Assembly: GCA_050745565.1 (NCBI GenBank)
Contig: JBOGKJ010000285.1
Location: forward strand, 2,149 to 66,148
Direction of reading: 5' to 3'
Length of the DNA: 64,000 nt
Source: Terriglobales bacterium
Lineage (GTDB): Bacteria; Acidobacteriota; Terriglobia; Terriglobales; SCQP01
The position numbers and the translations under genes are program-made. The notes beneath the pieces were generated by a model. That model saw nothing but the letters and a program-made list of their open reading frames with translations, was not told the origin of the DNA and searched no databases. How positions within the stretch are numbered: the stretch's first letter is position 1; the number at the start of each line of letters is the position of its first letter. Positions 40,989 to 63,819 of this stretch are shown here, in pieces.

Positions 40989-43334
40989 TCACGCCAGCGG
41001 AGCCGCACCGGGGTCGGCGCCAGCATTGACGTAAAGCGAACACACGCAGCGACGGCAAATCGGGTTACTGCCCACATCGAGCGTGCGGCGGAAGCTCAAC
41101 GCCTCCGGGCTGTTGAGAATCGTGAGCAACGGCTGCTGGCGGATATTGCCAAGCGGCGCGTGAAAAAAGCAGGGGCGGACCTGGCCGTCGGACTCGACCA
41201 CGGCCGACACCCAGGGCGCATTGCAGCGAGGAGCGACCGCCGGCGCCAGGCCCAGTTGGGATTCGAAGTGCCGCACCAGACGGTCCAACTTGGCGGGCCC
41301 CTCGACGATGTAGCCGGAGGCGATTTCTGGCGCGCACTCCCGGACCAGGGCGTCCATCTCGGCCCGCAGCCCGCGAGTGTGCTCGGCGGTAAGACCGAGT
41401 GCCTCGTGGGCGGAGGCCGACCACCCTCCGGGCCGCGCGTCGTGTTGAAAAGCTTCCGGCGAAAGGTCGGCCGCGAGGAACGAAATCGAGCTGAGTCCGA
41501 GTTCCAGGGCGGAACGGACGGTGGCGCGAAGGCAGCCGAAGTTGGCTTGCGAAATGGTGCAGCGACCGGCAATTGTCATCCCCGGGCGTAGATCCCGCAG
41601 CGCCTTGATACCGCGTGCCAAGTGGGCGTAAGCCCCGGAGACATTCCGCACCTGATCATGGGCCGCAGGCGGACCATCCAGCGAAACAATCACGTCATCC
41701 ACGTTGTCGGCCACCAGACACGCCCGTGGCGCCAGCAGCAAACCCGAACTGAGCAACGTTAGCCGCACCCGCTCGCCCCGTAGTATCCGGGCGAGGGCCG
41801 GCAGGTCGGAGTGCATCAGCGCCTCCCCGCCGGACAACACGACCCATCGCACCGCCAGCGAGCGTAGCGAGTTCCGCAGGCCATCGAGATCGGAAGTATT
41901 GAGCTCGCGGGTCTGGCGGATGCGCCAGATGTCGCACATTAGGCAGCGGCAGTTGCAACGGTTGTGCGGAAGCAGCACCAGGATTGGTAGTTGCCGGATG
42001 TAGTGGGGGTCGGACGGGTCGCCCTCCGCGCCAACGGCGCCGGCGGCGGCGGGCAGCGCCCGAGGGCGCGAGGGAGCAGACCCCAGCAGCTTGCCGCCGA
42101 GCCGGAGTTCAGAGCCCAAACACTGCCGGGCGGCGGCGAGCAAATGGCGCACCGGCGCCCGCACCAGACGTTCATGCCCGCCGGCCACGAGCGGCTCCAG
42201 GCCGTGAAGTAGATTTCGCGCGGATCCACTCCAGCGCTCGCCCAGTTCTGGGGCCAGCAGCTGCACGCGGCCGTCCTTTAGCACCAGCGCCACATCGTGG
42301 TGGCGTGCCCCCACCAACAGCTCGGCGGGCGTACTCCGCTCCATTCCGCCCGCGCAGCGTACCGCGATCAAGTCCGCGGCGCCACCGCGCGCTATCCGCC
42401 CGATACCACCCGTCAGGCCCAGGACCGAGCCGGCGCGCCGGGTGACCATGTCGTAGAGCAGGGCTCGGGGATGCAATCCATCGCCGAAGACCTGCGCGGC
42501 GTCGGACATCTCGTCCAGGAGATCGCCGGCGGCGGTCAGTGCCGAGTCGCTTCCGAGGATAGCCTTGGGGTTGTCGCGGATCAGATCGGGCGCGACCGTC
42601 GTCCCCAGCATGAACAAGTTCGAACTCGGACACCAGACCAGAGTGGCCCGCCGCTCGCGCAGAAGGCGGTGACCGTCCGCATCCAGGCCGACACAGTGAA
42701 CGGCCACGGTTCTCGCATCGAGGACCCCGAGTTTGTCAAGCTTCCCGGCTTCCTGGCGGCTGGCCTCGTCGGTGCCTTCCGCCAGATGCAGGATGAAGGG
42801 CGCATCGGAGGGCGCGCGCCTCCACGCGGCGGCGGCATCACCGCCCAGCGCAAGTGAGTGGATCCAACCATAGCGGCGCAGAACCCGAACCGGAAAGTCC
42901 GCATCCAGGCATGCGGCGTAGCAGGGGTTGTGATGGCAGACGGTGGTGACGCCGCACAACAGGTTCTTCAGGCCGCCCCACCAGCAACGCACCTCCTTGG
43001 AAAGCCTGGAATGCTCCTGAACCGGAGAACGGTCGGGCTGGTAGATATCGGCGGCCCAGGCCAGAAAATTGGGGTAAGGTCCGCGGCCGAGACGCGGGAA
43101 CAGATTGAACTCGAGATGCTCATGGGCATTGATCAGGCCGGGCAGGATCATGTAGCCGGACAGATCGAGGTGCTGGGCGCGGCGCGCATAGGCGAGCGGC
43201 ACGGCCTCACCGGCGTCGGGGATTTGGCGGATGGTCGAGCCGGCGATGAGTATCCGGGCCGGAATGCTGGTGGCGGCGTCGAGCGCGATCCGCGCCCCGG
43301 AGATGAGAATCGGGGCGGATGCGGGTGCGCTCAT
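40989..43334 (-). CDS. fusion protein: N-terminal metal-dependent amidohydrolase domain + C-terminal radical SAM domain with SPASM/twitch-like Cys-rich tail
   Basis: One uninterrupted ORF. LPGLINAHEHLEF (HxH), then PHNRCNCRCLMCDIW (CX3CX2C), then CNAPW...RPCFFH...NPICRRCVCSL. Start set at ATG 43334 (ATGA overlap with the upstream stop); the ORF-track start is 43361. Confidence 0.8.
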   Translation of the reverse strand: MSAPASAPILISGARIALDAATSIPARILIAGSTIRQIPDAGEAVPLAYARRAQHLDLSGYMILPGLINAHEHLEFNLFPRLGRGPYPNFLAWAADIYQPDRSPVQEHSRLSKEVRCWWGGLKNLLCGVTTVCHHNPCYAACLDADFPVRVLRRYGWIHSLALGGDAAAAWRRAPSDAPFILHLAEGTDEASRQEAGKLDKLGVLDARTVAVHCVGLDADGHRLLRERRATLVWCPSSNLFMLGTTVAPDLIRDNPKAILGSDSALTAAGDLLDEMSDAAQVFGDGLHPRALLYDMVTRRAGSVLGLTGGIGRIARGGAADLIAVRCAGGMERSTPAELLVGARHHDVALVLKDGRVQLLAPELGERWSGSARNLLHGLEPLVAGGHERLVRAPVRHLLAAARQCLGSELRLGGKLLGSAPSRPRALPAAAGAVGAEGDPSDPHYIRQLPILVLLPHNRCNCRCLMCDIWRIRQTRELNTSDLDGLRNSLRSLAVRWVVLSGGEALMHSDLPALARILRGERVRLTLLSSGLLLAPRACLVADNVDDVIVSLDGPPAAHDQVRNVSGAYAHLARGIKALRDLRPGMTIAGRCTISQANFGCLRATVRSALELGLSSISFLAADLSPEAFQHDARPGGWSASAHEALGLTAEHTRGLRAEMDALVRECAPEIASGYIVEGPAKLDRLVRHFESQLGLAPAVAPRCNAPWVSAVVESDGQVRPCFFHAPLGNIRQQPLLTILNSPEALSFRRTLDVGSNPICRRCVCSLYVNAGADPGAAPLA

Positions 43335-44035
43335 GGTTGGACGGGCGGCGATACCCGCCACACGAAGGTGAGCAGTGCCGGCACCGCGCCTGCGGCGTCA
43401 AAGAGGTCCGGGCGGCCAGCGGCGGCGAAGATGGGTCGCTCCGGCTCGCCCAACCGCGCCTGCTGGCAGCTCAGCAATTGGCAGCCGGCCGCCGTGAATG
43501 CCGCCTCCAGCCGGCGCGGAGGTTGCGGGTAATGCGGAACCTCAGTCCAGTGCCCGTCCGGGGAGGTGAAGCCACGCCGCCAGCCGGCTTCAGGATGGAC
43601 GTCGGCGATCAGGATGTAGGCGCCGGGGCGCGACTGACGGCTCAACTCCCGCGCCAGCGCCGGGACATCAGGCAGATACGCGAGGGCCAAGCAACAAAGG
43701 ATGCACTCGGCCCAATGCGCCGCCAGAGGCAGGCGGAGCACGTCGGCGCGCACCAACCGGGCGCGACCCGCCAAGCGCGAACGAGCACGGGCGAGCATCG
43801 CGGCGGAACGGTCCACCCCGACCGCAGTGCCGGCCCCCAGCGCCATCATCCGTTCCAGCCCTCGCCCGGTACCGCAAGCGACGTCGAGTACAGCCCGGCC
43901 CCGCAGATCGGGCAGCAGCGGCGTCAGCGTGCGCTCCGCCAGCGCTAACAACGGATTGGGTTGCTGGTCGTAGACCTCCGCCCAGGCGTCGTGGGGGCAG
44001 GGTTTTCGGACCATGTACCCCGGCACTGCACTCAT
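43331..44035 (-). CDS. class I SAM-dependent methyltransferase
   Basis: 234 aa, motif I VLDVACGTGRG. ATGA overlaps at both ends. Confidence 0.85.
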   Translation of the reverse strand: MSAVPGYMVRKPCPHDAWAEVYDQQPNPLLALAERTLTPLLPDLRGRAVLDVACGTGRGLERMMALGAGTAVGVDRSAAMLARARSRLAGRARLVRADVLRLPLAAHWAECILCCLALAYLPDVPALARELSRQSRPGAYILIADVHPEAGWRRGFTSPDGHWTEVPHYPQPPRRLEAAFTAAGCQLLSCQQARLGEPERPIFAAAGRPDLFDAAGAVPALLTFVWRVSPPVQP

Positions 44036-45522
44036 AGGCTCTCGCTCTCAGGCTGCCGCTGACGCAGCAATCTCTGCAGCCATCGCAGTTCCACCGGCCA
44101 GGCGTAGATGCGGCAGAGATAGCGCCAGGCGCTCAGGCCCCGCAACAGCCAGCGCCCCCACCGCGGCATGCGGATGTCCTGAATGGTGGGCCAGTGGCTG
44201 GCCACCACGAGCCGGAAATTATCAATCGTTCGCCGCGTACGCGCCGCCAGCCAGGGACTGTGCGGGCTGCGGCGAATGGTGAAGTTGAACCACCGTTCGG
44301 TGGCCCACTCCTCGGGGGTGTTGGGAAACTGAATCTGCGCTTCGACGTCACCGTACATGCGGTCGCGCTGCGGTACCGGCGTGTAGTGATAGAGAATGAT
44401 CTCCGAGGCGGGGTGAATGCGTTTCAACCGGCGGATGAACGCCAGGCATTCCCGCGTGTCACGGTCCGGATCCTTGGGATTGCCGACCACGAAGGAAAAT
44501 TCCGGGATGATGCCAAAGCCACGAATGCGGGCCGCCAATTCCAGCGTCTGCTCCACCCGCAGGTGCTTGTTCATGTCCTGCAAGACCCAGTTGGAGCCCG
44601 ATTCGGCGCCAAAGAAGATCATGGTGGCGCCGGAACGGCGCAACGCCGCAAAGGTGGCGTCGGAAAACCGCAGCATGGCGTCGATGCGGGCCTCGCACCA
44701 CCAGCGCAGATGCAGCGGCGTCAACCGCTCCGCCAGCTCGCGCGCGGTGTCTTCGCGCAGAAAAAAATTGTTGTCGTAGAACTGCACCGCGTCGGCGCCG
44801 TAGTGCGAGCTCAGATGTTGGAGCACGGCGGCGGTGCGAACGGGCGCCTCCATTTTCTCGCGGCTGCCGAAGGCGGTGGCGACACCACAAAAGCTGCACG
44901 GATAGGGACAGCCGAGGCTGGCCTGGTGGACGGCGGTGCGCCGGCCCAGAAACGACGGTAGCAGATAGCGGTCCACCGGCAGACGGTGATAAGGGAGCCA
45001 GGGGAAAGTGCCCGGGTTCTTCATGACCCGCTCAGGATTGTGGTGATGCGCGCCCGCGGCATCCCTATACGAGAGGCCCCGGATTTCCGCACGGCCGGCG
45101 CGGTCCGGCAGGGCGGCGAGCAGCTCCAAAAAGGTGTCCTCGCCCTGGCCGCGTACCACGTAATCGACGTAGGGCGCATTGAGCGCGGCGTCGGGATACA
45201 AGGTGGGAAAATATCCGCCCCAGACGATGGTCACTCCCGGAAACGCGGCCCGCAATGGCCGGCAACAGCTGATGGCCGCGCGCATCTGCGGCCCCGGCAT
45301 GACCGTGGCAGCCAGCACCGCTTGCGGGTGCTGTTTCAAGATCGCGCTGATGCTAGCCACAGGATCGGGGTCGAGGTTGCCGTCGACGATCGTATACGGC
45401 CACCGGCCCTCCAGCACGGCGGCGATGGTCAGGACCGACAGCGGAAAGCGGCGGCTGCGGGGCCGGGTGGCTCGGGGGTTGAAGAGAATAATCATGCCAT
45501 GGGCATTAAAGGCGGTATCCAA
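44032..45522 (-). CDS. B12-binding-domain radical SAM protein (subfamily X)
   Basis: 496 aa. N-terminal Rossmann-like B12-type domain, SLGCPYPCSFC cluster motif, C-terminal YAWPVELRW. The start may be 45495. Confidence 0.85.
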   Translation of the reverse strand: MDTAFNAHGMIILFNPRATRPRSRRFPLSVLTIAAVLEGRWPYTIVDGNLDPDPVASISAILKQHPQAVLAATVMPGPQMRAAISCCRPLRAAFPGVTIVWGGYFPTLYPDAALNAPYVDYVVRGQGEDTFLELLAALPDRAGRAEIRGLSYRDAAGAHHHNPERVMKNPGTFPWLPYHRLPVDRYLLPSFLGRRTAVHQASLGCPYPCSFCGVATAFGSREKMEAPVRTAAVLQHLSSHYGADAVQFYDNNFFLREDTARELAERLTPLHLRWWCEARIDAMLRFSDATFAALRRSGATMIFFGAESGSNWVLQDMNKHLRVEQTLELAARIRGFGIIPEFSFVVGNPKDPDRDTRECLAFIRRLKRIHPASEIILYHYTPVPQRDRMYGDVEAQIQFPNTPEEWATERWFNFTIRRSPHSPWLAARTRRTIDNFRLVVASHWPTIQDIRMPRWGRWLLRGLSAWRYLCRIYAWPVELRWLQRLLRQRQPESESL

Positions 45523-46471
45523 GCCACAGGTAGAAACGCGAGGGCTCGCGGCGCCGCAACAACCTCGCCTTCCAGGGCCGCAGGCGCCAGGCCAGGCCGT
45601 AATCGGGCAGGTGGCGCTCCCAGCGCAAACCCAGGGCCGCGGCTAGCGATTCCATCGTTTCCTGCACCAGGTACTCGCGGCTGCGCAGCGCGTCCGAGCG
45701 CTGCCCAAACTGACGCTGAAAGCGCTGGTGTTTTTCCTCAACCATGCGATCGCCGCTGACCGCCTGCGCGTAGAAGGGCGAATCCAGAATCGCCACCGCG
45801 CCGTCCACCCGCAGACACCGCAGCGCTTCGGCGAGCGTGGACCGGTAATCCTCCGAGTAATGGAACACGGCATTGTAAATCGCCAAGTCGAATTGCGCCT
45901 CGCAGAACGGCAAGTGATCCATGTCCGCCTGATATCGGGAAAAGCGGACGTCTTCGGCCAGATAGTGGCGCGCCGCGCCGAGGCCGTCGTCGGGATGGTC
46001 GAGCAGATCCACCGCGACTGGGCGGTGGCCCATGGCGGTGAGGCGATGGCTCAACCAACCGTTGCCGGCTCCGAGGTCGAGGATGTCGAGGCCGCCGCCC
46101 CGGGCGGCGGCGAGGCGCGGGACGAGGTTGGTCGCCAAGTGGCGGTAACTACAGCCCCGGATGGCCCACTCCCAGGCGTGGCGGCCGGTGCGGTCACTGT
46201 AGGGGAGATCAAGATAATAGGCGGGGTCGGGTGAGCCCCGCCCCTCCTGCGATCGGATGGTGGTGTAGCTCGTCGCGAAGGCGGCGAAGTGCCGGGCCCG
46301 GTCGGCGGCCAAAGCGCGCCAGATGCCGTCACGCAGACCCACCTCGAAACCGCAATGCGGACACAGGATGGCGGAGTCGCCCGCCGGCGGCAGCCCACGG
46401 GCGCAGGCCGGGCAGCGCAGACGCAAGCCGAAAGCGGCGGCGGTGGGCGCCATGGCGGCCGGAGTGCTCAT
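45506..46471 (-). CDS. SAM-dependent methyltransferase with N-terminal zinc-ribbon
   Basis: 321 aa from ATG 46471: CPAC...CPHC ribbon, then ILDLGAGNGWLS motif I. The ORF-track entry (438 aa) is over-extended. Confidence 0.8.
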   Translation of the reverse strand: MSTPAAMAPTAAAFGLRLRCPACARGLPPAGDSAILCPHCGFEVGLRDGIWRALAADRARHFAAFATSYTTIRSQEGRGSPDPAYYLDLPYSDRTGRHAWEWAIRGCSYRHLATNLVPRLAAARGGGLDILDLGAGNGWLSHRLTAMGHRPVAVDLLDHPDDGLGAARHYLAEDVRFSRYQADMDHLPFCEAQFDLAIYNAVFHYSEDYRSTLAEALRCLRVDGAVAILDSPFYAQAVSGDRMVEEKHQRFQRQFGQRSDALRSREYLVQETMESLAAALGLRWERHLPDYGLAWRLRPWKARLLRRREPSRFYLWLGYRL

Positions 46472-47271
46472 GTTCGTTGCAACTCGATCAGCAGGTGATC
46501 CGCCAAGGAGCGGTATCCCCACCAAGCGCCAAAGTGTCGGTCCAATCGCTCCATCCGGGTCAGCAGGCGGGGATGCCGTCGAGCCCAGGGTTCCCAGCGG
46601 GATGAAGGCACCGCAACGCCTACGCCGCGCCACCGCAGCAAACGAAAATGGGGGGCGAAGCGGCGCGCCAGGGCGGGAGCGCAGTAATAGCGCACCCGAA
46701 TTGGCGCACCGGCAATGCGGGCCTCGACGACGCCGTGCCGCAGCCGCCGCAGCCCTTTGCCGAGCTGGCCTTGGGCGAGCAGGCCGGCCATCTCCCAGCC
46801 CCCCCATCGGCCCGACACGCACAACAGCGCCGGCGCGGCCGGCCGCAACAACCGCGCCAGTTGTTCCGCCGCCGCCCGAAGGTCCTCCACACAGTTCAAT
46901 CCCGAGAAATTGGAAAACACTCCATCAAACCGCTCGGCTGGTTGCAGTTCCTGGAGAGCTTCGATCGCCAGCACGTGGACCTCTGCCGAGCCCGCGGCCG
47001 GGACGCGGCGCATGCGCCAGCGCGCCTGTTCCACCATGCGGGCGGATTGATCGCAGGCCCAGACGCTCACACCCCTTCCGGCCAGCCGCGCCGCGTCCAC
47101 GCCTGTGCCGCAGTTGATTTCCAGCACGTGCTGGCCGGGTTGAAACACGCGATCCATGACCCGCCACACCAGGCGGCGCTGGGCGCCGCCGATGCGGGAA
47201 TCGGTGAACACCCGGTCGTACTCGCCGGCGAGGCCGTCAAAGGGCGCCGAGGCAACTGCGGCGGCGTCCAT
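46468..47271 (-). CDS. class I SAM-dependent methyltransferase
   Basis: 267 aa, motif I VLEINCGTGVDA. Confidence 0.85.
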   Translation of the reverse strand: MDAAAVASAPFDGLAGEYDRVFTDSRIGGAQRRLVWRVMDRVFQPGQHVLEINCGTGVDAARLAGRGVSVWACDQSARMVEQARWRMRRVPAAGSAEVHVLAIEALQELQPAERFDGVFSNFSGLNCVEDLRAAAEQLARLLRPAAPALLCVSGRWGGWEMAGLLAQGQLGKGLRRLRHGVVEARIAGAPIRVRYYCAPALARRFAPHFRLLRWRGVGVAVPSSRWEPWARRHPRLLTRMERLDRHFGAWWGYRSLADHLLIELQRT

Positions 47272-48695
47272 TACGCCTCCACCTCAGCGGCGGCTCCCAG
47301 CAGGCCCGAGCGGGCGCTCTGGACCGCGGTTCGAAACGCGTTCAGGTCCGGCTCTGCCGCGCCGGCGCGCTGGCGGCGGTGCAGCTGCACCTCGGCTTCG
47401 AGAAGCTGGTCGGCGTAGCTGTAAAAGCGGCGGGAGTGCCGGCCACGGATGTGCAGCTCGCGATCGGAAGTCTCCGTCCACGGCGCCGAAGCCGTCAGCG
47501 AGTTCTCCAACTCGGCGAAGTACGGCGTCCCTTTGATGGGGTAGGAGACGGTCGTCAGAAAAATATCCGGGTCGGCGCGTTTGACATGGGCCACGGTCGC
47601 CTCGATATCGGCCATCTCCTCGTCCGCATAGCCCCACATCAGGAACATGCCGACCTGAATGCCACGCGCCCGCGCCATGTCCGCCGCCGCCTGCACCTGT
47701 TCCACCTTGACGTCGCGCTGCATGGCGTCGAGCAGCCGCTGCGAGCCGCTCTCCGATCCGATCCAGAGCCGGAAGCAGCCCAACTCCGCCAGCCGGTCGA
47801 GCACGGCGGGGTTGAGCCGGTCGGCGCGCGAAATGCACTCGAATGGAATGTGCAGTCGCCGTTCCCGCATTGCCGCCGCATAGCGTTCAAGCCAGGCGTG
47901 ATGTATCGTGAAGACGTCATCGGCGATCCAGAGCATGTCGGGGGCGTAGCGGCCCAGCACCCACTCGAGCTCTTCCACGACACGGTCGGGGTCGCGCCGG
48001 CGGTGGGTGCGGCCGTAGACGGCGTGGCTGCACCAGCGGCAGCGGTAGGGGCAGCCGCGCGCCGTGATGAGAGCCACGGAGCCGGTGCCGTGGTGCTGGC
48101 GCCAAGCCGCCAGATAGCGTTCGACCGGCACGCGTTCGCGATCCGGCCAGGGCTGGGCATCCAGATCGGCGATCAGCGGCCGGGGCGCAGTCTGGCACAC
48201 TCGGCCGTCGGCCTGCAAAAACGCAAGCCCTCGAATCCCCTCGCAGCCCGTCAGATCCAACCCCCTGCCGCTGTCGCGCGCGCACCGCTGCCGCTCGCGC
48301 AGCACCGGCACCAACTCCTCCAGCGTCAGTTCGCCCTCCCCATACACCACCACGTCAGCGCCCGCCGCCAGGTATTCCGCGGCATACGCGCCCGGCTCCG
48401 GACCGCCGGCCACCGTGACCCAGCCGCTGCGCTTCGCCGCCTGCAGAATTCGCACCGCGTTGCGCCGGGTCATCAGATTGGCGTAAATGCCGAGCACCGC
48501 CGGAGGGCCGGCCTCCAGCACCGACTCGAGCTCGTCGAATGTGCTGAAGGTGCTGTCGAACACCTCCACGGCCATCCCCTGCCGCCGCAGATGAGACGAC
48601 AAATAGAGGATGCCGAGCGGCACGTAGGGCTTCATGATGCGCTGCTCTTTGGCATCGTCGGCGAGGAAGTAACCGTGGGTCAGCAGCAGATCCAT
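47271..48695 (-). CDS. B12-binding-domain radical SAM protein (subfamily Y)
   Basis: 474 aa from ATG 48695: MDLLLTHGYFLADDAKEQRIMKPYVPLGILYL..., ARGCPYRCRWC. Confidence 0.85.
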   Translation of the reverse strand: MDLLLTHGYFLADDAKEQRIMKPYVPLGILYLSSHLRRQGMAVEVFDSTFSTFDELESVLEAGPPAVLGIYANLMTRRNAVRILQAAKRSGWVTVAGGPEPGAYAAEYLAAGADVVVYGEGELTLEELVPVLRERQRCARDSGRGLDLTGCEGIRGLAFLQADGRVCQTAPRPLIADLDAQPWPDRERVPVERYLAAWRQHHGTGSVALITARGCPYRCRWCSHAVYGRTHRRRDPDRVVEELEWVLGRYAPDMLWIADDVFTIHHAWLERYAAAMRERRLHIPFECISRADRLNPAVLDRLAELGCFRLWIGSESGSQRLLDAMQRDVKVEQVQAAADMARARGIQVGMFLMWGYADEEMADIEATVAHVKRADPDIFLTTVSYPIKGTPYFAELENSLTASAPWTETSDRELHIRGRHSRRFYSYADQLLEAEVQLHRRQRAGAAEPDLNAFRTAVQSARSGLLGAAAEVEA

Positions 48696-48697
48696 GG

Positions 48698-50137
48698 CTA
48701 ACCCGCTGCCGTTCGCGCCAGGGTGGTGGGTTGTGGGTGGCGGCTCGCCGGCTCCAGGGCCTCGACCCGCTGCCACAGCATCCCCACCCGCGCAGCCCCC
48801 GCCGCGGTAGCGTCGCGGTGGTACAGGCTCACTTCGGCGTGCAGGGCGTCCCGCAGCGCGCGGTAGAACTCGCTGGTGTAGGTGGCCTGAAACATGACCT
48901 CAAGGTCGTCACTATCGCTCCAGTTCCGCTTCGCCCCCAACTGCCCTCGCACTTGCCGGTGGAAGCCGGTGCCGGGCAGGGGGTAGGAGACTGAGACGCC
49001 GATGTCGTCCGGCCGCGCCGTGCGCACCAAGGCAATCGTCGCAGCGATTTCGGCCCAGCCCTCGCCAGGGTAGCCAAACTGCAAAAAGAACCCAGCGCGA
49101 ATATTCTGCGCGGCGAGTGCTGCCCGTGCCTCCAGCACTTGGCGGACGCGCAGGCCTTTGTCCATGCGGTCGAGCACCTCTTGCGCGCCCGATTCCGCAC
49201 CGAGCCAGACCTCGCGGCAACCGGCGCGTCGCAGGGCGGCACTGGCGGCGGCGGAGATCAGATTGGCGCGCGTTTGAATCTTGAACGGGGTCACCGCCTG
49301 CAGCCCCTGGACGGCCTGGGCCAGCTCCTCCGCCCACCCCGGCCGGAGGGCAAACACGTCATCCGCGAACCACAACTGGTCGGCGCCCCAGCGCGTGCGC
49401 AGCTCGTGCATCTCGCCTGCCACGGCCGCCGCAGAGCGGCCGTGCCAGGCGTTGCCATAGATGGGCTTCGCGCACCAATTGCAGCCATAGGGGCAGCCGC
49501 GGCTCGCCACCAGGTTGAGCGAAAAGTAGCCGTGGTGGGCCCGCCAGGCGCGCCGGTAGGGCTCAATATCCACCAGGTCACGGGCGGGTAGCGGCAGCGC
49601 GTCCAGTGCCGCAATCGCGCTCCGGGGCGGGGTTCGCGCCACGCGCCCGTCCGCCGTCAGCCATGCCAAACCGGCGATCGAGGTGACTTGCTGGGGATTT
49701 TGGGCCAAGGCCCGGGCGAGCTCGAGCAACGTCTGTTCCGGCTCACCCATCACCACCCAGTCGAATCCGGCATGCAGGTACTCCTCCACATGGTCGCTGG
49801 CATCCGAGCTGTTGCCCACGACCACCACGCCTGCGTCGTGCGCCATCTCCGCCATCGTCCACGCCAATTGCCGGTTTGCGGTCAGGCACATCTTGGACAG
49901 AAAATTAAAATTGTCCTCGCAAATCGCCAGCACTCGGGGCCGGTGGCGAGCAAGCGCGGAGCGCAAGCCGGGCAACGGCGGCTCGAAGGTGCTATCGAAG
50001 AACGCCACCGAGTGCCCGGCCGCGCGCAGTAGCGCGGCCGCGTACAGCCCGCTCAGCGGCGGGTAGGGCTGCATCTTCCGCGCCTGCTTCGTGTCCGACG
50101 GAACGTGATTGGCGTGGGTGAAGAGTATGTCAGTCAT
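48698..50137 (-). CDS. B12-binding-domain radical SAM protein (subfamily Y)
   Basis: 479 aa: MTDILFTHANHVPSDTKQARKMQPYPPLSGLY..., SRGCPYGCNWC. Confidence 0.85.
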   Translation of the reverse strand: MTDILFTHANHVPSDTKQARKMQPYPPLSGLYAAALLRAAGHSVAFFDSTFEPPLPGLRSALARHRPRVLAICEDNFNFLSKMCLTANRQLAWTMAEMAHDAGVVVVGNSSDASDHVEEYLHAGFDWVVMGEPEQTLLELARALAQNPQQVTSIAGLAWLTADGRVARTPPRSAIAALDALPLPARDLVDIEPYRRAWRAHHGYFSLNLVASRGCPYGCNWCAKPIYGNAWHGRSAAAVAGEMHELRTRWGADQLWFADDVFALRPGWAEELAQAVQGLQAVTPFKIQTRANLISAAASAALRRAGCREVWLGAESGAQEVLDRMDKGLRVRQVLEARAALAAQNIRAGFFLQFGYPGEGWAEIAATIALVRTARPDDIGVSVSYPLPGTGFHRQVRGQLGAKRNWSDSDDLEVMFQATYTSEFYRALRDALHAEVSLYHRDATAAGAARVGMLWQRVEALEPASRHPQPTTLARTAAG

Positions 50138-50170
50138 CGGTCTGCTCCCGGCGCCGCCGCCTGCCGCGGT

Positions 50171-51670
50171 TCAGCACGCCTCCTCCATGGAGTGACTCAA
50201 GCTCTGACCGGTCAGCAGGGAGCGGCGCGAGACCACGCCTTCGGTGGCCCGGGCCAACCACAGCTCCCACGGAAAACCAAAGCGGTTCACCCGCAGGCGC
50301 CAGCGCAAGGGCGCGCCCAGCACTCGGCGCCGGGCTCGGAACCACCGCGAACGCTGCGCGGCGCGCCGGATCTGGTTGTTCAACAGAAAGTACTCGAGCA
50401 TGCGGCGCAGCCGGCGGCGCTCTTCACCCTGCAGCCAGGGCAGTATGTTCCGCCCCAGCGGCAGGTCCGCCCACGCTTCCAAGTTCCCCGGCTCGTGCAC
50501 CCCCAGCGTCCGCAACTGCGGCCAGATCGGGATGCCGGGATAGGGGGTGAAAATGTTGGGGGAAAAGCTCACGACCCCATACCGGCGCGCGATGTCGCTC
50601 ATCACTCGGAAGGTGTGCAGGCGGTCGGCTTCGGTTTCGCCGGGGTAGCCTAGAATCAAATTGAAGGTCACCCGGATGCCGGCCTGGTCGGCCTTGCGCG
50701 CGGTCTCGAACATCTCCTCCACGCGCTGATGCTTCTTGTTCATGGCCAGCAGCACGCCTTCCGAAGCAGATTCGGTCCCGAACCCCATATGGCTGACGCC
50801 ACTGGCCGCGAGGCGGCCCACGTCGGCGTCACTGAGACGGCATAGCAGGTCCGTCGAGGCCTGAAAGGTCCAGCGGAAGCGCTCGCCGGAGGCGATAAAG
50901 CCCTCGGCGATCTCGATCGCGCGCTTGCCGTCCACGAGAAAATTGGAGTCCAGCAGCGCCACTTCCTCCAGTCCATGCCGCCGCACCAACTCGACCACCT
51001 CGCCCACCACGCGTCCGGCCTTGTACGCGTTGAAGCGCCGCTGGTAAAACACCATGTCGGTGCAGTAATTGCAGGCGTAGGGGCAGCCAATACTACTGGC
51101 GTATCCCGCCTTGCGTACGCCGCTCAGGCGGGCGTAGGCATCGAAGTCGGCCAGGTGGTAGGCGGGAGGCGTCAGTCGGTTGATGTTTTCCAGCGGCCGA
51201 TCGGGGTTGTGGACGTGCGCGCCGTTGCGCTTGAAGCTCACCCCGGCAACTTCCTCCATGCCGCGGCCCGCGGCAAGGCGCTCGGCAATCTCCAGCAGCG
51301 TGCGCTCCCCCTGCCGCCGCACCACCATGTCCACGTAGTCCGGTTCGAGCGACTGATCCGGAAGCAGACTGGGATGCCAGCCGCCCAGGATGATGGGCAG
51401 CTCCGGCCGCATCTGTTTCACGCGTCGGGCCAGGCGCGCGCCGTGCTGAATCATCGGACCGGTAAGCATGGAAATACCCAGGCAGAGCGCATCCGGAATC
51501 GCCCGCATCACCACGGCTTCGAAATCGGGCGTGACGGCGGCATCAACCAGACGCACCGGGAAACCGGCTTCCAACAGCGGCGCAGCCAGGCACAGAAGAC
51601 TGAGCGGCGCGCTGAGCGCCGGCCCCGAGTATGGCGGATAGAACAGGACGATCGTGCGTGGCGCGCTCAT
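50171..51670 (-). CDS. B12-binding-domain radical SAM protein (subfamily X)
   Basis: 499 aa from ATG 51670 (MSAPRTIVLFYPPYSG...), SIGCPYACNYC, C-terminal FGFPWELW. Confidence 0.85.
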   Translation of the reverse strand: MSAPRTIVLFYPPYSGPALSAPLSLLCLAAPLLEAGFPVRLVDAAVTPDFEAVVMRAIPDALCLGISMLTGPMIQHGARLARRVKQMRPELPIILGGWHPSLLPDQSLEPDYVDMVVRRQGERTLLEIAERLAAGRGMEEVAGVSFKRNGAHVHNPDRPLENINRLTPPAYHLADFDAYARLSGVRKAGYASSIGCPYACNYCTDMVFYQRRFNAYKAGRVVGEVVELVRRHGLEEVALLDSNFLVDGKRAIEIAEGFIASGERFRWTFQASTDLLCRLSDADVGRLAASGVSHMGFGTESASEGVLLAMNKKHQRVEEMFETARKADQAGIRVTFNLILGYPGETEADRLHTFRVMSDIARRYGVVSFSPNIFTPYPGIPIWPQLRTLGVHEPGNLEAWADLPLGRNILPWLQGEERRRLRRMLEYFLLNNQIRRAAQRSRWFRARRRVLGAPLRWRLRVNRFGFPWELWLARATEGVVSRRSLLTGQSLSHSMEEAC

Positions 51671-53226
51671 GGGCAGCTCGCCTGCGTCTGCAACTGCTTG
51701 GCGTCCACCGAGGGCTTGGCGGGGGGCAGAATGTGCTTCAGCTTGCGGTTGATCCACAGCTCCACCGGCAGGGCGTAGATATCGTGATCGAGCCGCCAGC
51801 GCGCCGGATAGCTGGTGGCGTGCTGCAGTTTGCGGCGCCAGACCTTGCGCCGGTCAGCGGCGATGGGAATGCGGTCAAAGGCGATGCGGAGATAATCGCG
51901 CATCGTCTGCAGCCGCTGATGTTCCCGTCCGCGCAGCCACGGCAGCACGGTGTAGCGGGGGAAGAAATCCGCCCAGCCCGCCAGCGTCGCCGGCAGCTCC
52001 AGGCCCAGTTCCTGGGCCTTGTGCAGGACCGGCGCGCCGGGGTAGGGCGTAAAGATGTTCGTCCAAAACTCCGCGCCGGAGTGGCGGCGGCACATGTCCA
52101 TCATGAAACGAACGGTTTCGCGGCGCTCGGCCCGGCCCTCGCCGGGAAATCCAAAAATGATGTTGAACGAGGGGCGAATACCGGCTTGCAAGCAGCGGGA
52201 CGCGGTCTGGTCAATGTCGTCGAAGTTTTGGAACGTCTTGTTCATCAGCGCCAGCACTTTGGGAGACGCCGAGTCCACGCCATGGCAGATCTGGGACAAG
52301 CCGGCTCGGCGCAACAGGCGCAAATTATCGGGCGTCAGGCGGGCGGTCAGATTGCTGGTCGCCTGGATGCTCCAGTCGAAACGGGCACCGCCGCGCACCA
52401 GGTCTTCGGCGATGTGCAGGGCGCGCTCCAGATCCACCAGAAAGTTGTCGTCCACCACCCAGAGCAGCTGCAGGCGGTAGCGGCGGGTCAGCTCCAGCAT
52501 CTCGGCCGCCGTCTGGTCAGCGGGCAGCGCATTCCATTGGCGTCCGTAGACGGCGGCATTGGTGCAGTAGGCGCAGTGGAAGGGGCATCCCAGGCTCGAC
52601 GTGTACATCGCCCAACGTTTGCCGCACAGCCGTTCATAGGCGTCGAAGTCGGCGATCTGGTAGGCCTTGGGCGGCAATTCGGCCAGGCGTAGCAGCCCCC
52701 GTGGCGGATTGAGCACAAGCTCGCCGCCGCGTTTAAAGCCGACGCCGGCGATGCCGTCCAACGTTTCGCCGGCGGCCAGACGTTGCACGACCGCCAGCAT
52801 GGCCTGCTCACCCTGGCCCTGCACCACGGCATCAATGCAAGCCGTTTCGAGAGTTTGGCGGGGAAGCAGCGAGGGGTGCCAGCCGCCCACAATGATCGGA
52901 AACGCCGGATTCCAGGCTTTGACGGCGCGGGCGACCTGAAGCGTCTCCCGGATCATGGGCCCGGTGACCAGCGACACGGCGAGGCAGAGGGCGTCCTGCA
53001 CCTCCGCCAGCACCCGTTTTTCGAACTGCGGGGTGATGGTGGAATCAATAAGCTGGACTTGGAAGCCGGCACTCAGCAGCGGGGCGGCCACCGCCAGAAT
53101 GCCGAGCGGCGCCGTGGCCTCCTGGCTGGAAAAGGCCGGGAAGAAGAAGACGACCTTGCGGGATGGACGCTGGTGACTCAATGCAGATTGAGCATAAACG
53201 GAGGGCCCAGTGAAGATGTCAAGCAC
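51667..53226 (-). CDS. B12-binding-domain radical SAM protein (subfamily X)
   Basis: 519 aa, SLGCPFHCAYC, C-terminal YALPVELW. Clear paralogue of 50171-51670. Confidence 0.85.
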   Translation of the reverse strand: MLDIFTGPSVYAQSALSHQRPSRKVVFFFPAFSSQEATAPLGILAVAAPLLSAGFQVQLIDSTITPQFEKRVLAEVQDALCLAVSLVTGPMIRETLQVARAVKAWNPAFPIIVGGWHPSLLPRQTLETACIDAVVQGQGEQAMLAVVQRLAAGETLDGIAGVGFKRGGELVLNPPRGLLRLAELPPKAYQIADFDAYERLCGKRWAMYTSSLGCPFHCAYCTNAAVYGRQWNALPADQTAAEMLELTRRYRLQLLWVVDDNFLVDLERALHIAEDLVRGGARFDWSIQATSNLTARLTPDNLRLLRRAGLSQICHGVDSASPKVLALMNKTFQNFDDIDQTASRCLQAGIRPSFNIIFGFPGEGRAERRETVRFMMDMCRRHSGAEFWTNIFTPYPGAPVLHKAQELGLELPATLAGWADFFPRYTVLPWLRGREHQRLQTMRDYLRIAFDRIPIAADRRKVWRRKLQHATSYPARWRLDHDIYALPVELWINRKLKHILPPAKPSVDAKQLQTQASCP

Positions 53227-56936: not shown

Positions 56937-58378
56937 GGCAGCACCTGCGGCGACGACAGGAACAGCAGCTCGCGCAGCCGCGGCCGTCCGAATATCCACA
57001 GACTGCCGGCCAGCAGCGCCACCTCGCTGATCGCCGTCCGGTCCAGCGGCGGGCGCAGCCAGCTCAGCGCCGCCGCCGCCAGCGCGATGGCGACCGCGCC
57101 CAACCCGATCCGCACCGCATGCCGCATCAGCCGCGGCGTCCAAATCGCCCGCAGCACGCAACCCAGGAACCCGGCGGCCATGACCAACTGCGTCACCACA
57201 TCGGCGATGGCGCTGCCCCGCGCACCGGCCGCGCCGGCCAGGACGAACTGCAGCACGACCCCTACTCCCACGCCGGCGGCGGTCACACCTAGGTACGCGG
57301 CGCGGCGCCGTGCCGCCACCAGCACGTAAAACAAGACCGTGTTGAGAAATAGCAGCGGCAGCGCAGGAATGAGCAGGCGCAGTAAACCCGAGGCACTCGC
57401 CAGGCGCGGCCCAAACAACACCGCCAACACCCGCGGCGCCATCTTCCAAACCAACAGAGAGATCGGAACGGACGTGAGCAGGCTGTATTTGGTCAAATGG
57501 GCGGCGTATACCCGGCCCCGTTGGCGTGGGCCCCGCAAAACACGCGCAAGTTTGGGGAACAACACTGTCATCAATAGGCTGGCGGCGAGATAGGCGGCAA
57601 GCAGCAGGTACGCACATGCCTGAAAGCGGCCCAGCACCGCATTGGGGCTGCGCAGCGAAAGCACCAACACGTCGAGCCGGAGGCTGAGCGCCTGCAACAG
57701 CGTCGTCACGCCCAGCGGCAAGGCGGCGAGAAACATCGCCGCTGGCGTGGGCGAGAAGCGGCGCGGGTGCGGCCCGGTGGGGAAACATACGCGCACGAAT
57801 CTCCAGGCCAGTCCGGTTTCCACCATTTGACCTGCCAGCAGGCAGGCGGTAACCATGCCCAGGCTGGCGTGCCAGAACCAGGCCACGCCGACGCACGTCA
57901 GCACGGTGGCGGCATTGGCCCCCTGCACTCCCGCGATGAAGTGCATGCGTTCCAGGGCGCGGAATACCGCCGCGCATCCCTGGCTGTAGGTCTGCAGCAG
58001 CGCCCGTGCCATGAGCAGCCCTAGCAGCAGCCGTCGGCCCGGGTCGTGCAGACCCCACAGCTCCAGCGCCACCGTGCCCACCACCACCACCGTGGCCAGG
58101 CGCCACTTCAACGCCTGCATGGCCCAGAACCACCCGGCCAGTTCGTCCGGCCGCGCCGCCACTTCCCGCGTGACCAGCAGATGCGAACCGCAATCCGGCA
58201 CGAGCAGGAGCACACTTGCCAGCGCCACCGCATAGCCATAGGCCCCCAGCCCTGCCGCCCCGAAACGATGCCCAACGAGGACCGCCATTGCCAGCGTGGC
58301 GATCCGTGCCGCCGACTCGCCCCCCAGCACCGAGAGCAGGTTCAGCAGAAACCCCCGCGGTGGACTACTGGCCGCCAT
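56933..58378 (-). CDS. oligosaccharide flippase (Wzx/MOP family)
   Basis: 481 aa, about 12-14 TM segments, N-terminal pattern typical of polysaccharide biosynthesis/flippase proteins. Confidence 0.8.
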   Translation of the reverse strand: MAASSPPRGFLLNLLSVLGGESAARIATLAMAVLVGHRFGAAGLGAYGYAVALASVLLLVPDCGSHLLVTREVAARPDELAGWFWAMQALKWRLATVVVVGTVALELWGLHDPGRRLLLGLLMARALLQTYSQGCAAVFRALERMHFIAGVQGANAATVLTCVGVAWFWHASLGMVTACLLAGQMVETGLAWRFVRVCFPTGPHPRRFSPTPAAMFLAALPLGVTTLLQALSLRLDVLVLSLRSPNAVLGRFQACAYLLLAAYLAASLLMTVLFPKLARVLRGPRQRGRVYAAHLTKYSLLTSVPISLLVWKMAPRVLAVLFGPRLASASGLLRLLIPALPLLFLNTVLFYVLVAARRRAAYLGVTAAGVGVGVVLQFVLAGAAGARGSAIADVVTQLVMAAGFLGCVLRAIWTPRLMRHAVRIGLGAVAIALAAAALSWLRPPLDRTAISEVALLAGSLWIFGRPRLRELLFLSSPQVLP

Positions 58379-59670
58379 TAAGGAACGCGCCCATCCTCCG
58401 GCGTGGCCGGAATCGCAGCCAGTGAGTAAACCGGATCGGCAGCGCGAATTTCCCGGTAACTCTCCCGGGCCAGCGCCAGACCCGCCAGCATCAGCCAGCC
58501 CAGCAACACCGCCAACACCGTATTGAGCAGTGTTCGCGGCCGCACCGGCTTCTCCGGAGGCAGCGCGGGCGCAATCTGCTGGAATTGCTGCGAACGGGCG
58601 TTGACGCTGACCGAGGCGTTGCGGTAATCCCGCGCCGATGCGGTATAGGTGGCGCTCGCCACGTCATAGGCTTGCTGCTGCTTCGCGACCTCGTCCCGTT
58701 GCCGCACCAGGTCCGGCATGCGCGCGCGCAGGGTGGCGTTCACGGCAGTCAGTTCGGCGTTGGCCGCGGCGATGCCCTGGCGATCCGCGGCCGCCTCTGC
58801 TCCCGCCTGATCCCGCCGCGCCAGCAGTTGATCGCGGACCGGGTTGAGCACGTCCTCGGTGACGCCGATCCGGCTGTCAGAGTCGAGCTGGAGGCGCTGC
58901 AGCGCCTGCTCCAGAAAACGGTCCTGATCGAGGCTCTTCTGCAGATGCACCAGCGGCGGCTGCTGCTGGACGGCGCCGGCCAGAGCCTGGCTCTCGCCGG
59001 TCGCCTGGGCCAGGGCGAGGTTAAGATTCCCCAGCGTCGCGGCCAGCTCCTGCTGGCGCACCAGCAAACCCGCCACCTCCTTCTCCCGTTCGTCCATCTT
59101 TGCCGCCAAATTGACACGGAGCCGGGCCGTCGCCGCTTGTTGCAGCGCCGCCGCGGCGCGGCCCATGCGGTCGCTCAGGAAGCGCTGGGTGGCGTCGGCG
59201 TCGGCCTCGGTGAGGTGTTGGTTGAAGCTGGAAGCGGTCAGCGCCAGGTAATTGGCCAGTTGGGCCGCCATGGCCGCGCTAGGGAAATCCACCTCGATCT
59301 GCAGGAGGCGGGTCGAGCGAGGAATCTCCACATCGAAGCCGTAGCGGCTCCGCAGCAAGCGTGGAGTCAGGCGGTAGGGGGGCTGGTCGAGTTGAAAATG
59401 ATGCAGCGCCTGCGCCACCAACCCATCATTGTCGATGAAGCTGATGTAGGTCGGCAGCAGTGAATATTCCAGTGGCGAAGGCAGTACGCTGGCGTCCAAT
59501 TTCGAGTCCGACACCAGCACGTAGGTGGTGGCGCGGTAGATTCGCGGCGACGCCAGACTGAACAGCAGCGCTGCCAGACCGCATAAAACGCCCCCGCCAA
59601 GAATCCAGTTACGGCCCCGACGCAGGCGGCGCAAGCGCGCAAGCCACGGCTGATCGCGTTGATCAAACAT
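58378..59670 (-). CDS. polysaccharide co-polymerase / chain-length determinant (Wzz/GumC-like, no kinase domain)
   Basis: 430 aa from ATG 59670. N-terminal TM, long Q/A-rich coiled-coil periplasmic region, C-terminal TM after PEKPVRPR. Confidence 0.75.
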   Translation of the reverse strand: MFDQRDQPWLARLRRLRRGRNWILGGGVLCGLAALLFSLASPRIYRATTYVLVSDSKLDASVLPSPLEYSLLPTYISFIDNDGLVAQALHHFQLDQPPYRLTPRLLRSRYGFDVEIPRSTRLLQIEVDFPSAAMAAQLANYLALTASSFNQHLTEADADATQRFLSDRMGRAAAALQQAATARLRVNLAAKMDEREKEVAGLLVRQQELAATLGNLNLALAQATGESQALAGAVQQQPPLVHLQKSLDQDRFLEQALQRLQLDSDSRIGVTEDVLNPVRDQLLARRDQAGAEAAADRQGIAAANAELTAVNATLRARMPDLVRQRDEVAKQQQAYDVASATYTASARDYRNASVSVNARSQQFQQIAPALPPEKPVRPRTLLNTVLAVLLGWLMLAGLALARESYREIRAADPVYSLAAIPATPEDGRVP

Positions 59671-61687
59671 TGTCAGTTGACGCGGGCTCCGGCGCGGCTT
59701 CGCCGCGCATCCCGCTTGTGTGCGCGCTGGCTCGGGGGGTCCGTTCGCCCCAACCCGGTGCACGCGTTGCCTGGGGAAGTTCCCGATAATTACCGCCCCG
59801 CTGATGCCGCGGGCTGGCGGCAGCGGCGCCATGCGCGGGCCGAGGCCGATCCAGCGGACGAACCCAGCCGCAGACGGTGCGGGCGAGAATCCATAGGTCG
59901 TGACCCAGCGACCAACGTTCAAAATATTCCAGATCGCATTCCAGGCGCTGGTGAATCGAAGTGTCGCCCCGCCATCCGTTCACCTGCGCCCAGCCGGTGA
60001 TGCCCACGTGGCCCTGGTGCCGGAGCGCATAGCCCGGTATCTCGCCGCTGAAGCGCTCCACGAAAAAGGGCCGCTCTGGACGCGGTCCCACCAGGCTCAT
60101 CTGGCCGCGCAAGACGTTCACCAACTGCGGCAACTCGTCCAAGTTGGTTCGCCGAAGCCACGCCCCCAGCCGGGTAATGTGGCGATCATCGGCTCGACCC
60201 CAGTGGGTGTCAGGGTTGAACTCCAATGCCGGCCGCATGGTGCGAAACTTCAGCATGCGGAAGTAATGGCCAAGCCGGCCCACGCGGACCTGCCGCAACA
60301 AGACCGGTTCCGGCGAGGTCAGCAGGAGCGCGATACTTATCGCCAGCAGCACCGGCGACAGCAACCCCAGCGCCAGCAGTGCAATCGTCGCGTCCATGCT
60401 GCGTTTTATTCCGTTGTAGGCCATGCCCTCGACTCGGCGCATCGTCCTGGCGTGCTGGTGCCGCCGCAGCCAGAACGGCCAGCGCCCGGCGGCCCAACCG
60501 TAGCGCACGGCGGCGTGGAGATGAAACCCGAGCCGGCGGAGCACATGGACCGCGGAGGTCGCCGCCGACCACCGCCCAGGGCGGGCCGCCGCGTGTCCGC
60601 GGTGAGGACGATGCCGCGGGCACAGCCGGCGCCGCCGGAGGCCGCTCCAAACCCGCGCGTCGGTCACGAAGTGCCGGTGGAGCAGCAAACCGTCTTTGTT
60701 GGCGCTGAAGTTGTCCAGTGCCGCCCCTACGCCCAGTCGCTGCACCCAGATCGCGGTCGCCGGTCGCAACTGGCCGACCGTGGCGCTCCGCAGCCCCGGC
60801 GGCAGGTCCGCCTCGAAAAGCCGCTCGCTCAGCAGGAATACGGCTCCGGCCGCTTCCGCCAGTTGGGTATGCGCCCACGCCGGGTGCCCAGCCGCTGCGA
60901 CAGCCTCTTCCCGGCCACGCTCGAAAAACCACGCCAGTTCCAGCAGCCAGGCCAGGCGGCACCAATTGTGCAGGATGTGGCGGAAGATGTGGAGCGTCTG
61001 AAAAATCAAGGCGTCGCCCGGGGCCAGTACCTCGAATTCGAGGTCGTTCCAAACCACGCGCCGTCGCCGCTCGAAGGCGTCGCGAAGCGCCGGAATACCG
61101 ACGCCATCCTCAGTGGGGTTCCAGAGCTGCGTGTGTACCTCGACGGAACGGGGCATACCTGGCGCAAACAACCGCGCTCCGCCGGGCGGCGGCGCCCCCG
61201 CACCCGGACACCAGTACGTCTCACCGTGGCCGCTATCCTCGCGACGCAGCCGGTAGCCCGCTTGCAGCAGGACGCGACGCGCCGATTCCCGCGCGCTGGC
61301 TGGTATCAGGTAGTCGAAGTCGTAGGTGACGCGCATCCCCAAATCGGGACAGAACAGTGGATACAGACTGAATCCCTTGAGCACGGCGAAAGGAATGTCG
61401 TGCCGCCGGAACAAGCGGTTGGTGGCGGCGAACTCCTGGCGCATCAGCTGCATGCGGTGGTGGTTTTGCCGCGCACACTCCTGCCAGTGCCGGCGTTCGC
61501 ACGTCGGCGCGGCGGCATCGGCCCGCAACCGCGAATGCAGGTAAAGCGTCAACCCGGAAAGGTCCAGCCAGAACCGGTTCCGACGCCATGCCCGCGCCGT
61601 GTACCGGCCGCACCGCTCCCGCGCCGCCACCGAGCCGCCCGACGTGCCGAGAGCGGCCACGACGTCACGCGCCAAAGTTCGGTTCAC
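59663..61687 (-). CDS. fusion: N-terminal NTP_transf_5-like nucleotidyltransferase + C-terminal PglC/WbaP-type phosphoglycosyl (bacterial sugar) transferase
   Basis: Single 674-aa ORF. FAVLKGFSLYPLF...RVTYDFDYLI (NTase-like), then KRSMDATIALLALGLLSPVLL...LKFRTM...DELPQLVNVLRGQMSLVGPRPERP. An internal Met (MRRVEGMAYNG) could in principle give a separate product. Confidence 0.75.
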   Translation of the reverse strand: MNRTLARDVVAALGTSGGSVAARERCGRYTARAWRRNRFWLDLSGLTLYLHSRLRADAAAPTCERRHWQECARQNHHRMQLMRQEFAATNRLFRRHDIPFAVLKGFSLYPLFCPDLGMRVTYDFDYLIPASARESARRVLLQAGYRLRREDSGHGETYWCPGAGAPPPGGARLFAPGMPRSVEVHTQLWNPTEDGVGIPALRDAFERRRRVVWNDLEFEVLAPGDALIFQTLHIFRHILHNWCRLAWLLELAWFFERGREEAVAAAGHPAWAHTQLAEAAGAVFLLSERLFEADLPPGLRSATVGQLRPATAIWVQRLGVGAALDNFSANKDGLLLHRHFVTDARVWSGLRRRRLCPRHRPHRGHAAARPGRWSAATSAVHVLRRLGFHLHAAVRYGWAAGRWPFWLRRHQHARTMRRVEGMAYNGIKRSMDATIALLALGLLSPVLLAISIALLLTSPEPVLLRQVRVGRLGHYFRMLKFRTMRPALEFNPDTHWGRADDRHITRLGAWLRRTNLDELPQLVNVLRGQMSLVGPRPERPFFVERFSGEIPGYALRHQGHVGITGWAQVNGWRGDTSIHQRLECDLEYFERWSLGHDLWILARTVCGWVRPLDRPRPAHGAAAASPRHQRGGNYRELPQATRAPGWGERTPRASAHTSGMRGEAAPEPASTDNV

Positions 61688-63728: not shown

Positions 63729-63819
63729 CTTTGCTGTTCTCCGCTGACCAGCGTAATGGGGCGGAGGGCGTCGTTGTGTCGGACTGGTGTCAACTATTTG
63801 TAAAGGTTGCTTCGACCGC

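Follow-up and report, generated by a model that had tools for sequence, protein, structure and literature searches.

The stretch of DNA analysed here, referred to as the window, comprises 64,000 nucleotides of contig JBOGKJ010000285.1 from a soil-dwelling Terriglobales bacterium (Acidobacteriota; assembly GCA_050745565.1). It carries on its minus strand a polysaccharide operon in which a single open reading frame (ORF) of 674 codons encodes both a nucleotidyltransferase (NTase) of the family PF14907 and the catalytic core of a phosphoglycosyl transferase (PGT), an enzyme that primes the synthesis of cell-surface polysaccharide. The genes upstream encode two HprK-like kinases, and those downstream encode a Wzz-like protein, a Wzx flippase, a Wzy polymerase and two glycosyltransferases of the family GT4 (Table 1). 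The fused gene is genuine and is probably the product of a deletion that joined two neighbouring genes of this operon in one lineage.

The original prediction, made from the DNA letters, had placed an in-frame fusion of these two enzymes at the same position but had overlooked that the gene runs on the minus strand. Pfam bears out both domain assignments: the N-terminal region scores well above the PF14907 cutoff and the C-terminal region well above that of PF02397. All the motifs quoted at that time are found in the fused protein (LKGFS at aa 103, YDFDYL at 122, LKFRTM at 479, DELPQL at 517 and GPRPERP at 534), and no stop codon interrupts the frame between the two domains. The start codon is a GTG at 61687 that overlaps the TGA of the upstream gene (GTGA), and it is the correct start because homologs align from residue 1. 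One NCBI call is a 5'-truncated protein of 596 aa from M79; other NCBI records give all 674 aa under the label 'MAG: sugar transferase [Terriglobales bacterium]', MAG standing for metagenome-assembled genome. Gene callers predict a single gene in four assemblies. The G+C content at third codon positions (GC3) of the fused frame is 0.72–0.86 throughout aa 1–600, including the junction. In the C-terminal tail (59666–59869), GC3 is 0.82 in the Wzz frame versus 0.66 in the fused frame, so that the ORF limits may differ from the real end of the PGT or from the real start of Wzz, for which the annotation gives 59670.

Table 1 Features of the fused gene, its operon and the related loci. SD, Shine-Dalgarno sequence; SAM, S-adenosylmethionine
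Feature	Position	Strand	Remarks
Fused ORF, 674 aa	59663..61687	minus	NTase aa 1-~412, PGT catalytic core aa ~413-606, unmatched tail aa 607-674
PF14907 NTP_transf_5 domain	60815..61570	minus	aa 40-291, E 1.2e-30, 107 bits vs gathering cutoff 31.2
NTase active-site signature K104-G105-F-S107 ... D123-F-D125	61307..61381	minus	invariant columns in 18-sequence family alignment
Long C-terminal NTase helix	60431..60565	minus	aa 375-419, cationic (+9), aromatic-rich, amphipathic, runs straight into the PGT re-entrant helix
Fusion junction	60443..60454	minus	aa ~412-415, from residue-level alignment to relatives
Junction-spanning peptide of the fused protein			…WLRRHQHARTMRRVEGMAYNGIK…
Internal ATGs, possible secondary starts	60424..60444	minus	M416 (60442-60444), M422 (60424-60426)
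PF02397 Bac_transf catalytic core	59870..60406	minus	aa 428-606, E 2.1e-57, 194 bits vs gathering cutoff 27; with KFRTM, D517-E518 dyad, GPRPERP
Re-entrant membrane helix with Ser-Pro break	60299..60400	minus	LLSPVLL at aa 442, aligned to WbaP LSPVLL
C-terminal tail, 68 aa	59666..59869	minus	low complexity, no homology found
HprK-like / ScmC-like kinase, first half, 338 aa	62712..63728	minus	P-loop GGSGAGKST
HprK-like kinase, second half, 343 aa	61684..62715	minus	P-loop GPPESGKTS; GTG start in GTGA overlap, preceded by strong SD AGGAGGTG
Response regulator region without sensor kinase	window ~63730-64000; L005 6948-7726; L032 4177-4955
Wzz-like	58378-59670	minus
Wzx flippase	56933-58378	minus
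Wzy polymerase	~55428-56936	minus
GT4 glycosyltransferase	54280-55434	minus
GT4 glycosyltransferase	53252-54277	minus
Downstream same-strand run	40989..53181	minus	five B12-binding radical SAM, three class-I SAM methyltransferases, 781-aa amidohydrolase + radical SAM/SPASM fusion
Wzy_C + DUF5777 region	L005 4033-6662; L029 3345-5694; L004 1029-2198
Distant NTase cluster, first part	e.g. L026 2072-13650		response regulator, HisKA, two unannotated ORFs, RibB-like, PhyH, NTase
Distant NTase cluster, rest	e.g. L026 2072-13650		methyltransferase, RibA-like GTP cyclohydrolase II, B12-radical-SAM, methyltransferase, amidohydrolase

The 674-aa ORF is identical in three haplotypes, which are those of the window, of GCA_975322235.1 and SRR27067714 (these two have single-nucleotide polymorphisms (SNPs) in common) and of GCA_050745545.1. 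The SRR27067714 haplotype was taken from the Logan assembly, which is separate from the NCBI assemblies. Over 6.7–8.1 kb the three haplotypes differ by 2–7 SNPs and by no gap, and none of the SNPs lies inside the fused ORF.

The NTase half preserves all 59 of the columns that are invariant across an alignment of 18 family sequences, including the KG-x-S and D-x-D motifs. An AlphaFold model of this half (pLDDT 84, pTM 0.86) finds its best Foldseek matches in LnuA, TM1012, ANT(2'')-Ia and MenT, all of which have Pol-beta-type NTase folds; the matches are weak (E 4e-3 to 0.1, target TM-score 0.55–0.66). Several of these enzymes act on sugar hydroxyls. The model and the alignment together give the Pol-beta-type fold and the metal-binding signature G-x-S ... 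D-x-D of PF14907, and a profile of the NTase family has no match at E <= 1 among PDB sequences. In the AlphaFold model of the full-length protein, computed from an alignment without PGT homologs, pLDDT is below 50 over aa 412–674. The hydrophobic moment of the C-terminal NTase helix reaches 0.51, at or above the 95th percentile of the protein, and this amphipathic helix suggests that stand-alone NTases too may lie at the membrane surface.

The PGT half aligns with residues 278–466 of WbaP and with residues 4–181 of PglC, which is nearly all of PglC, and its alignment to the solved WbaP retains the Ser-Pro helix break, KFRTM, the D517-E518 dyad and the PRP motif. Its profile score, re-entrant Ser-Pro helix, Asp-Glu dyad and PRP motif are all those of the monotopic PGT (monoPGT) superfamily. 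The only hydrophobic segment in the whole fused protein spans aa 430–463. The protein is not a large PGT of the WbaP type, since it has no PF13727 match and no further hydrophobic segment, nor a small PGT of the PglC type, since its core shares the ORF with ~412 aa of NTase on the N-terminal side. The C-terminal part covers only the last ~180 positions of the NCBIfam models for EPS/WcaJ/WbaP-type enzymes, which are ~450 residues long. The PGT core is 54% identical to that of a related locus (L004), which makes it the best-conserved gene of the cassette (33–49% for its neighbours), so that there is no sign of relaxed constraint on it. No second PGT was found within the 64-kb window.

Work on WcaJ and WbaP indicates what such a core can do by itself. 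The truncated forms WcaJ(E252-Y464) and WbaP(F258-Y476) are enough to give in vivo activity (PMC4361858), and the fused PGT part starts at most ~30 residues from these truncation points. Those constructs simply removed the half with four transmembrane (TM) helices and PF13727, whereas here an NTase stands in its place. Both regions flanking the re-entrant helix are cytoplasmic (PMC4361858), so that the topology allows a cytoplasmic domain to be fused at the N-terminus. By analogy with the truncations, the PGT core would still prime the Wzx/Wzy glycan on undecaprenyl phosphate.

Related proteins carry the two enzymes separately. A word-indexed search returned 17 stand-alone NTases of 386–461 aa, with 32–37% identity over aa 1 to ~415 of the query, and many PGTs that match its last third only; the sole two-domain protein was the query itself. 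A phmmer scan of 1.84 billion protein representatives was read from its best 150 matches, down to ~186 bits. The score falls from 1389 bits for the protein itself to 280 bits, and every later match among these 150 covers one half only. They include ~27 further stand-alone NTase representatives and no second NTase–PGT fusion, and among them the fusion appears confined to one lineage.

Gene contexts were compared at 30 related loci, all from MAGs of Terriglobia/Acidobacteriota and labelled L001 onwards. The conserved cassette begins with an OmpR-type response regulator, a HisKA sensor kinase, a two-domain HprK-like protein of 660–695 aa (ScmC + Hpr_kinase_C) and an NTase of ~430 aa, and continues with a large PGT of ~460 aa (PF13727 + PF02397, four TM helices), a Wzz-like protein, Wzx, Wzy, GT4 and GT4. 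The HprK-like and NTase genes at the operon head overlap by 4 nt in relatives and are translationally coupled. At twelve loci (L001, L003, L004, L006, L008, L009, L011, L013, L015, L029, L030 and L031) a separate NTase gene is followed 2–39 nt later by a large PGT gene, complete or truncated by the contig; the closest relative, L029 at 40% identity, is one of them. The original prediction held that such NTases usually are separate genes beside those of HprK-like kinases, and had proposed a survey of fused or split orthologues. The former agrees with the relatives' loci, where the NTase gene directly follows the kinase gene, and the latter finds orthologues split. Locus L012 (6735–9655) has apparently lost the HprK-like gene and has a frame-shifted Wzz and a PGT remnant of ~37 aa, so that the cassette decays in some lineages. 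A fusion of another kind occurs at L028 (852–3377; P0045, also P0195), where an NTase of the same subfamily (41% identity) is joined to a complete GT4 in a protein of 841 aa. This NTase::GT4 fusion is independent of the PGT fusion; it lies downstream of an HprK-like gene and was seen in two contigs, one from ENA and one from JGI.

The junction can be placed by comparison with these relatives. Homology to the NTases runs out at '...RWPFWLRRHQ' (aa ~412), and homology to the PGTs opens at '(H)AR-TMRRVEGMAYNGIKR', whose counterpart in the large PGTs of relatives is '...NAR-LYPTEYFGYVVVKR' (about residue 245). The relatives' NTases align down to about window position 60470, and their PGTs align from residue ~256 on (60430–59855, 52–56% identity); alignment found no counterpart in the window for their residues 1–255. 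No linker is inserted, and PGT homology resumes just ahead of the re-entrant helix. The ancestral order was probably response regulator, sensor kinase, two-domain HprK-like kinase, PF14907 NTase, large PGT, Wzz, Wzx, Wzy, GT4 and GT4. A deletion of ~0.8 kb would have removed the last ~15 codons of the NTase, which are not conserved, together with its stop codon and the short spacer, as well as the leading ~245 codons of the large PGT gene, which encode the four-helix membrane bundle and the regulatory/dimerisation domain PF13727. The remaining parts would thereby have been joined in frame. That the fusion arose in this way, as a genuine and lineage-specific event inside a conserved acidobacterial operon, is the reading we favour with some confidence. 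An alternative origin from an ancestral small PGT by loss of a stop codon was rejected, because the PGT is large in 12 of 12 syntenic relatives, the closest one included. The PglC-type option named in the original prediction for the C-terminal part therefore does not hold for the ancestry of the enzyme: the part appears to be the core left by a shortened WbaP-type PGT.

The product would be a monotopic membrane protein in which a complete cytoplasmic NTase is continuous with, and anchored by, the re-entrant helix and the PGT core. The NTase half would stay active and now operate at the membrane. The fusion may have been tolerated since the NTase already served the same cluster of pathway steps. 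Fusions of a second domain to the N- or C-terminus of a monoPGT core form a recognised class, the bifunctional PGTs (Bi-PGTs), as summarised in PMC10312794 from the sequence-similarity network of O'Toole, Imperiali and Allen. The present protein has this architecture. As far as that summary describes the class, its members likewise join the core, with its re-entrant helix and DE dyad, to an N-terminal soluble enzyme of the same pathway, both on the cytoplasmic face; the present case differs in its PF14907 partner with Pol-beta fold, in its origin by deletion from a large PGT and in its restriction to a single lineage. A literature search retrieved no paper joining monoPGTs with nucleotidyltransferases; the primary census of Bi-PGT partners was outside its coverage. 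The protein is best described as a putative, deletion-derived bifunctional monoPGT of a single lineage, with an NTase in place of a large PGT's accessory half.

The fusion is a useful clue that the NTase and the PGT work together. Most relatives encode the HprK-like kinase as one protein; in this lineage, as in L014, its gene is split into two ORFs, both of which keep a Walker A P-loop. A frameshift error behind the split was ruled out, because the GTGA overlap and the strong SD are present in all haplotypes and the split recurs in L014. By their profile scores, the two proteins are only distant relatives of the HprK-related A/B and ScmC families of NCBIfam (HprK_rel_B 40 bits versus a cutoff of 200, HprK_rel_A 36 versus 200, ScmC 29 versus 125).

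The closest characterised parallel comes from a lasso peptide. In pseudomycoidin the HprK-like kinase PsmK phosphorylates a serine, and the 'uncharacterised nucleotidyltransferase' PsmN is then needed for a hexose on the phosphate (PMC6993621). The DxD motif of PsmN is essential (PMC6993621) and is equivalent to D123-F-D125 here; no activity of PsmN was obtained in vitro (PMC6993621, PMC11912497). In PsmK/PsmN, and with PadeK of paeninodin, an HprK-like kinase likewise stands beside a DxD NTase, and the structural neighbours are alike (ANT(2'')-Ia, PDB 5cfs and 4xje). Kinase adjacency is also found here, where the two HprK-like ORFs directly precede the fused gene and stop and start codons overlap. 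The setting differs: PsmK/PsmN belong to a lasso-peptide cluster, and the present genes to a Wzx/Wzy glycan operon with a kinase that is two-domain or split; PsmN is at most a candidate member of PF14907. No gene for a precursor peptide, lasso cyclase or protease and none of the RRE/PqqD type was found among the ~50 window proteins scanned, and no intergenic gap within the operon is long enough to hold a gene for such a peptide. A literature search on HPr kinase, nucleotidyltransferase, exopolysaccharide and Acidobacteria returned nothing.

The mechanism put forward in the original prediction, with the lipid-linked intermediate as the target of the kinase/NTase module, is plausible. The P-loop kinase would make a phospho-intermediate, which the NTase would convert or cap using a nucleotide substrate, and the product would be used by, or placed on, the glycan growing on the lipid carrier. 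Both PGT and GT4 enzymes use nucleotide-activated donors and act on a lipid-linked glycan. A PF14907 gene is also paired with a kinase gene, here that of a thymidylate kinase, in a phosphonate cluster, where the pair flanks Ppm. Two versions of the mechanism seem about equally likely: the pair may tailor the undecaprenyl-diphosphate-linked unit in the manner of PsmK/PsmN, or it may make a nucleotide-activated donor that the PGT or GT4 then uses. Regulation by the pair through protein modification would be less likely than either.

Several observations weigh against a working fusion whose NTase serves the lipid-linked glycan. To our knowledge, HprK-like kinases phosphorylate serines of proteins or peptides only. 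Loci L016–L027, from Acidobacteriaceae, hold more distant NTase homologs in another conserved cluster that has neither a PGT nor an HprK-like gene. Since the NTase of this distant clade occurs without them, its core partner may not be the PGT. The distant cluster shares four orthologous genes with the window operon and looks like a nucleotide-derived small-molecule pathway by its gene content. A 532-aa unannotated ORF beside the NTase homolog of L026 was tested as a diverged HprK-like kinase and is not one. The conserved partners of the NTase also include B12-radical-SAM, methyltransferase and amidohydrolase genes. The carriers of the fusion form one near-clonal lineage only, with no SNP in the ORF by which to gauge selection after the event, and the PGT slot of the cassette is unstable, being empty in L007, L010 and L014 and reduced to the remnant in L012. 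Finally, PF13727 provides WbaP with its dimer interface and its allosteric regulation, which is sensitive to uridine monophosphate (UMP) (PMC10312794). Because the deletion took this domain, the enzyme may be impaired or deregulated.

The same instability of the PGT slot is the main support for a degenerative accident, in which the PGT was crippled by the deletion, the two parts came to be in frame by chance and the inactive or dispensable PGT part marks a stage of gene loss while priming is encoded elsewhere. Loss of the HisKA sensor kinase and splitting of the HprK-like gene in this lineage, the absence of a second such fusion from the best 150 phmmer matches, and the loss of the WbaP dimer interface and allosteric site point in the same direction. 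This explanation is nevertheless unlikely. The catalytic motifs and the re-entrant helix are all intact in a core that no other gene of the cassette exceeds in conservation, the breakpoint lies where truncated WbaP and WcaJ stay active, and such a core is all that small PGTs have in nature. Furthermore, no other PGT was found in the window, and the two parts are joined in frame, with coding GC3 kept across the junction.

Less probable still is that initiation at M416 or M422 also yields a separate small PGT (~250 aa), which would carry out the priming and make the link to the NTase functionally irrelevant. M422 stands 8 residues ahead of the KR at the opening of the re-entrant-helix domain, the point at which PglC and other natural small PGTs begin, and it is preceded by an SD-like GAGGG whose predicted anti-SD pairing of -6.4 kcal/mol matches that of many genuine operon genes; most genuine genes of the operon have equally weak SDs. 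However, only 1 nt separates GAGGG from the ATG, versus the usual ~5–10 nt, and M422 aligns with an internal L/F in relatives and is therefore not an ancestral start. Moreover, without an upstream stop codon, translation of the NTase always gives the full-length fusion, which is also what the single gene calls in the four assemblies describe. As for a collapsed or chimeric metagenomic join, every source is a MAG or metagenome assembly, but a false fusion is very improbable because three haplotypes with differences elsewhere in the locus share the identical ORF, the junction recurs in at least two NCBI assemblies and a separately assembled sequence-archive (SRA) run, and the join keeps the frame, sits at a domain boundary and leaves the coding signal unbroken.

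A bolder reading may be offered as a long shot. Pairs of a kinase and an NTase activate building blocks of surface glycans in LicA/LicC (phosphocholine) and AmgK/MurU (MurNAc). The logic of kinase, NTase and transferase is the same there, whereas the NTases of those pairs are Rossmann-like (PF00483 / PF12804) and their kinases are not HprK-like. A new activation route would have the HprK-like kinase or kinases and the PF14907 NTase turn a phosphorylated block into a nucleotide-linked donor, which would be passed directly to the PGT core or GT4. Equally speculatively, the block might be made or methylated by the co-operonic B12-radical-SAM enzymes and methyltransferases, and the two fusions would then represent consecutive channelled steps. 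If true, such a donor route would be the first biochemical role of PF14907 in glycan biosynthesis and would lead to a reinterpretation of PsmN.

The finding alone reveals no new mechanism, and the event is limited to a single lineage. PF14907 proteins and their associated HprK-like kinases are widespread, and we know of no member with a defined biochemical reaction. Few computational clues point to the partners of such enzymes, and natural fusions are one of them. An NTase subfamily that has been fused once to a priming PGT and once to a GT4, and that belongs to a Wzx/Wzy operon, points to a role in glycan assembly at the membrane. The fused protein is a ready-made construct for testing the role of the NTase, and it is also a natural experiment on large PGTs, in which the four-TM/PF13727 half has been swapped for an unrelated enzyme.

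The flanks of the operon have features of their own. The HisKA sensor kinase of the cassette (~580 aa, HAMP/HisKA) is absent in this lineage, and the response regulator directly precedes the kinase gene. Downstream of the second GT4 gene, the set of B12-radical-SAM and methyltransferase genes is an unusual attachment to a Wzx/Wzy glycan operon; no gene of this run (40989–53181) passes an NCBIfam cutoff, and the best matches are BchE, HpnJ, ApyD and ScmE-like. On the plus strand, 36080–40750 carries genes for an HlyD-like adaptor, an ABC ATPase and two permeases of the MacB/FtsX type, which converge on the 3' end of the operon and could encode an exporter for the operon product or be unrelated to it. 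In several lineages a second Wzy_C gene (O-antigen ligase-like) and a DUF5777/cytochrome-c-like gene are conserved divergently upstream of the cassette.

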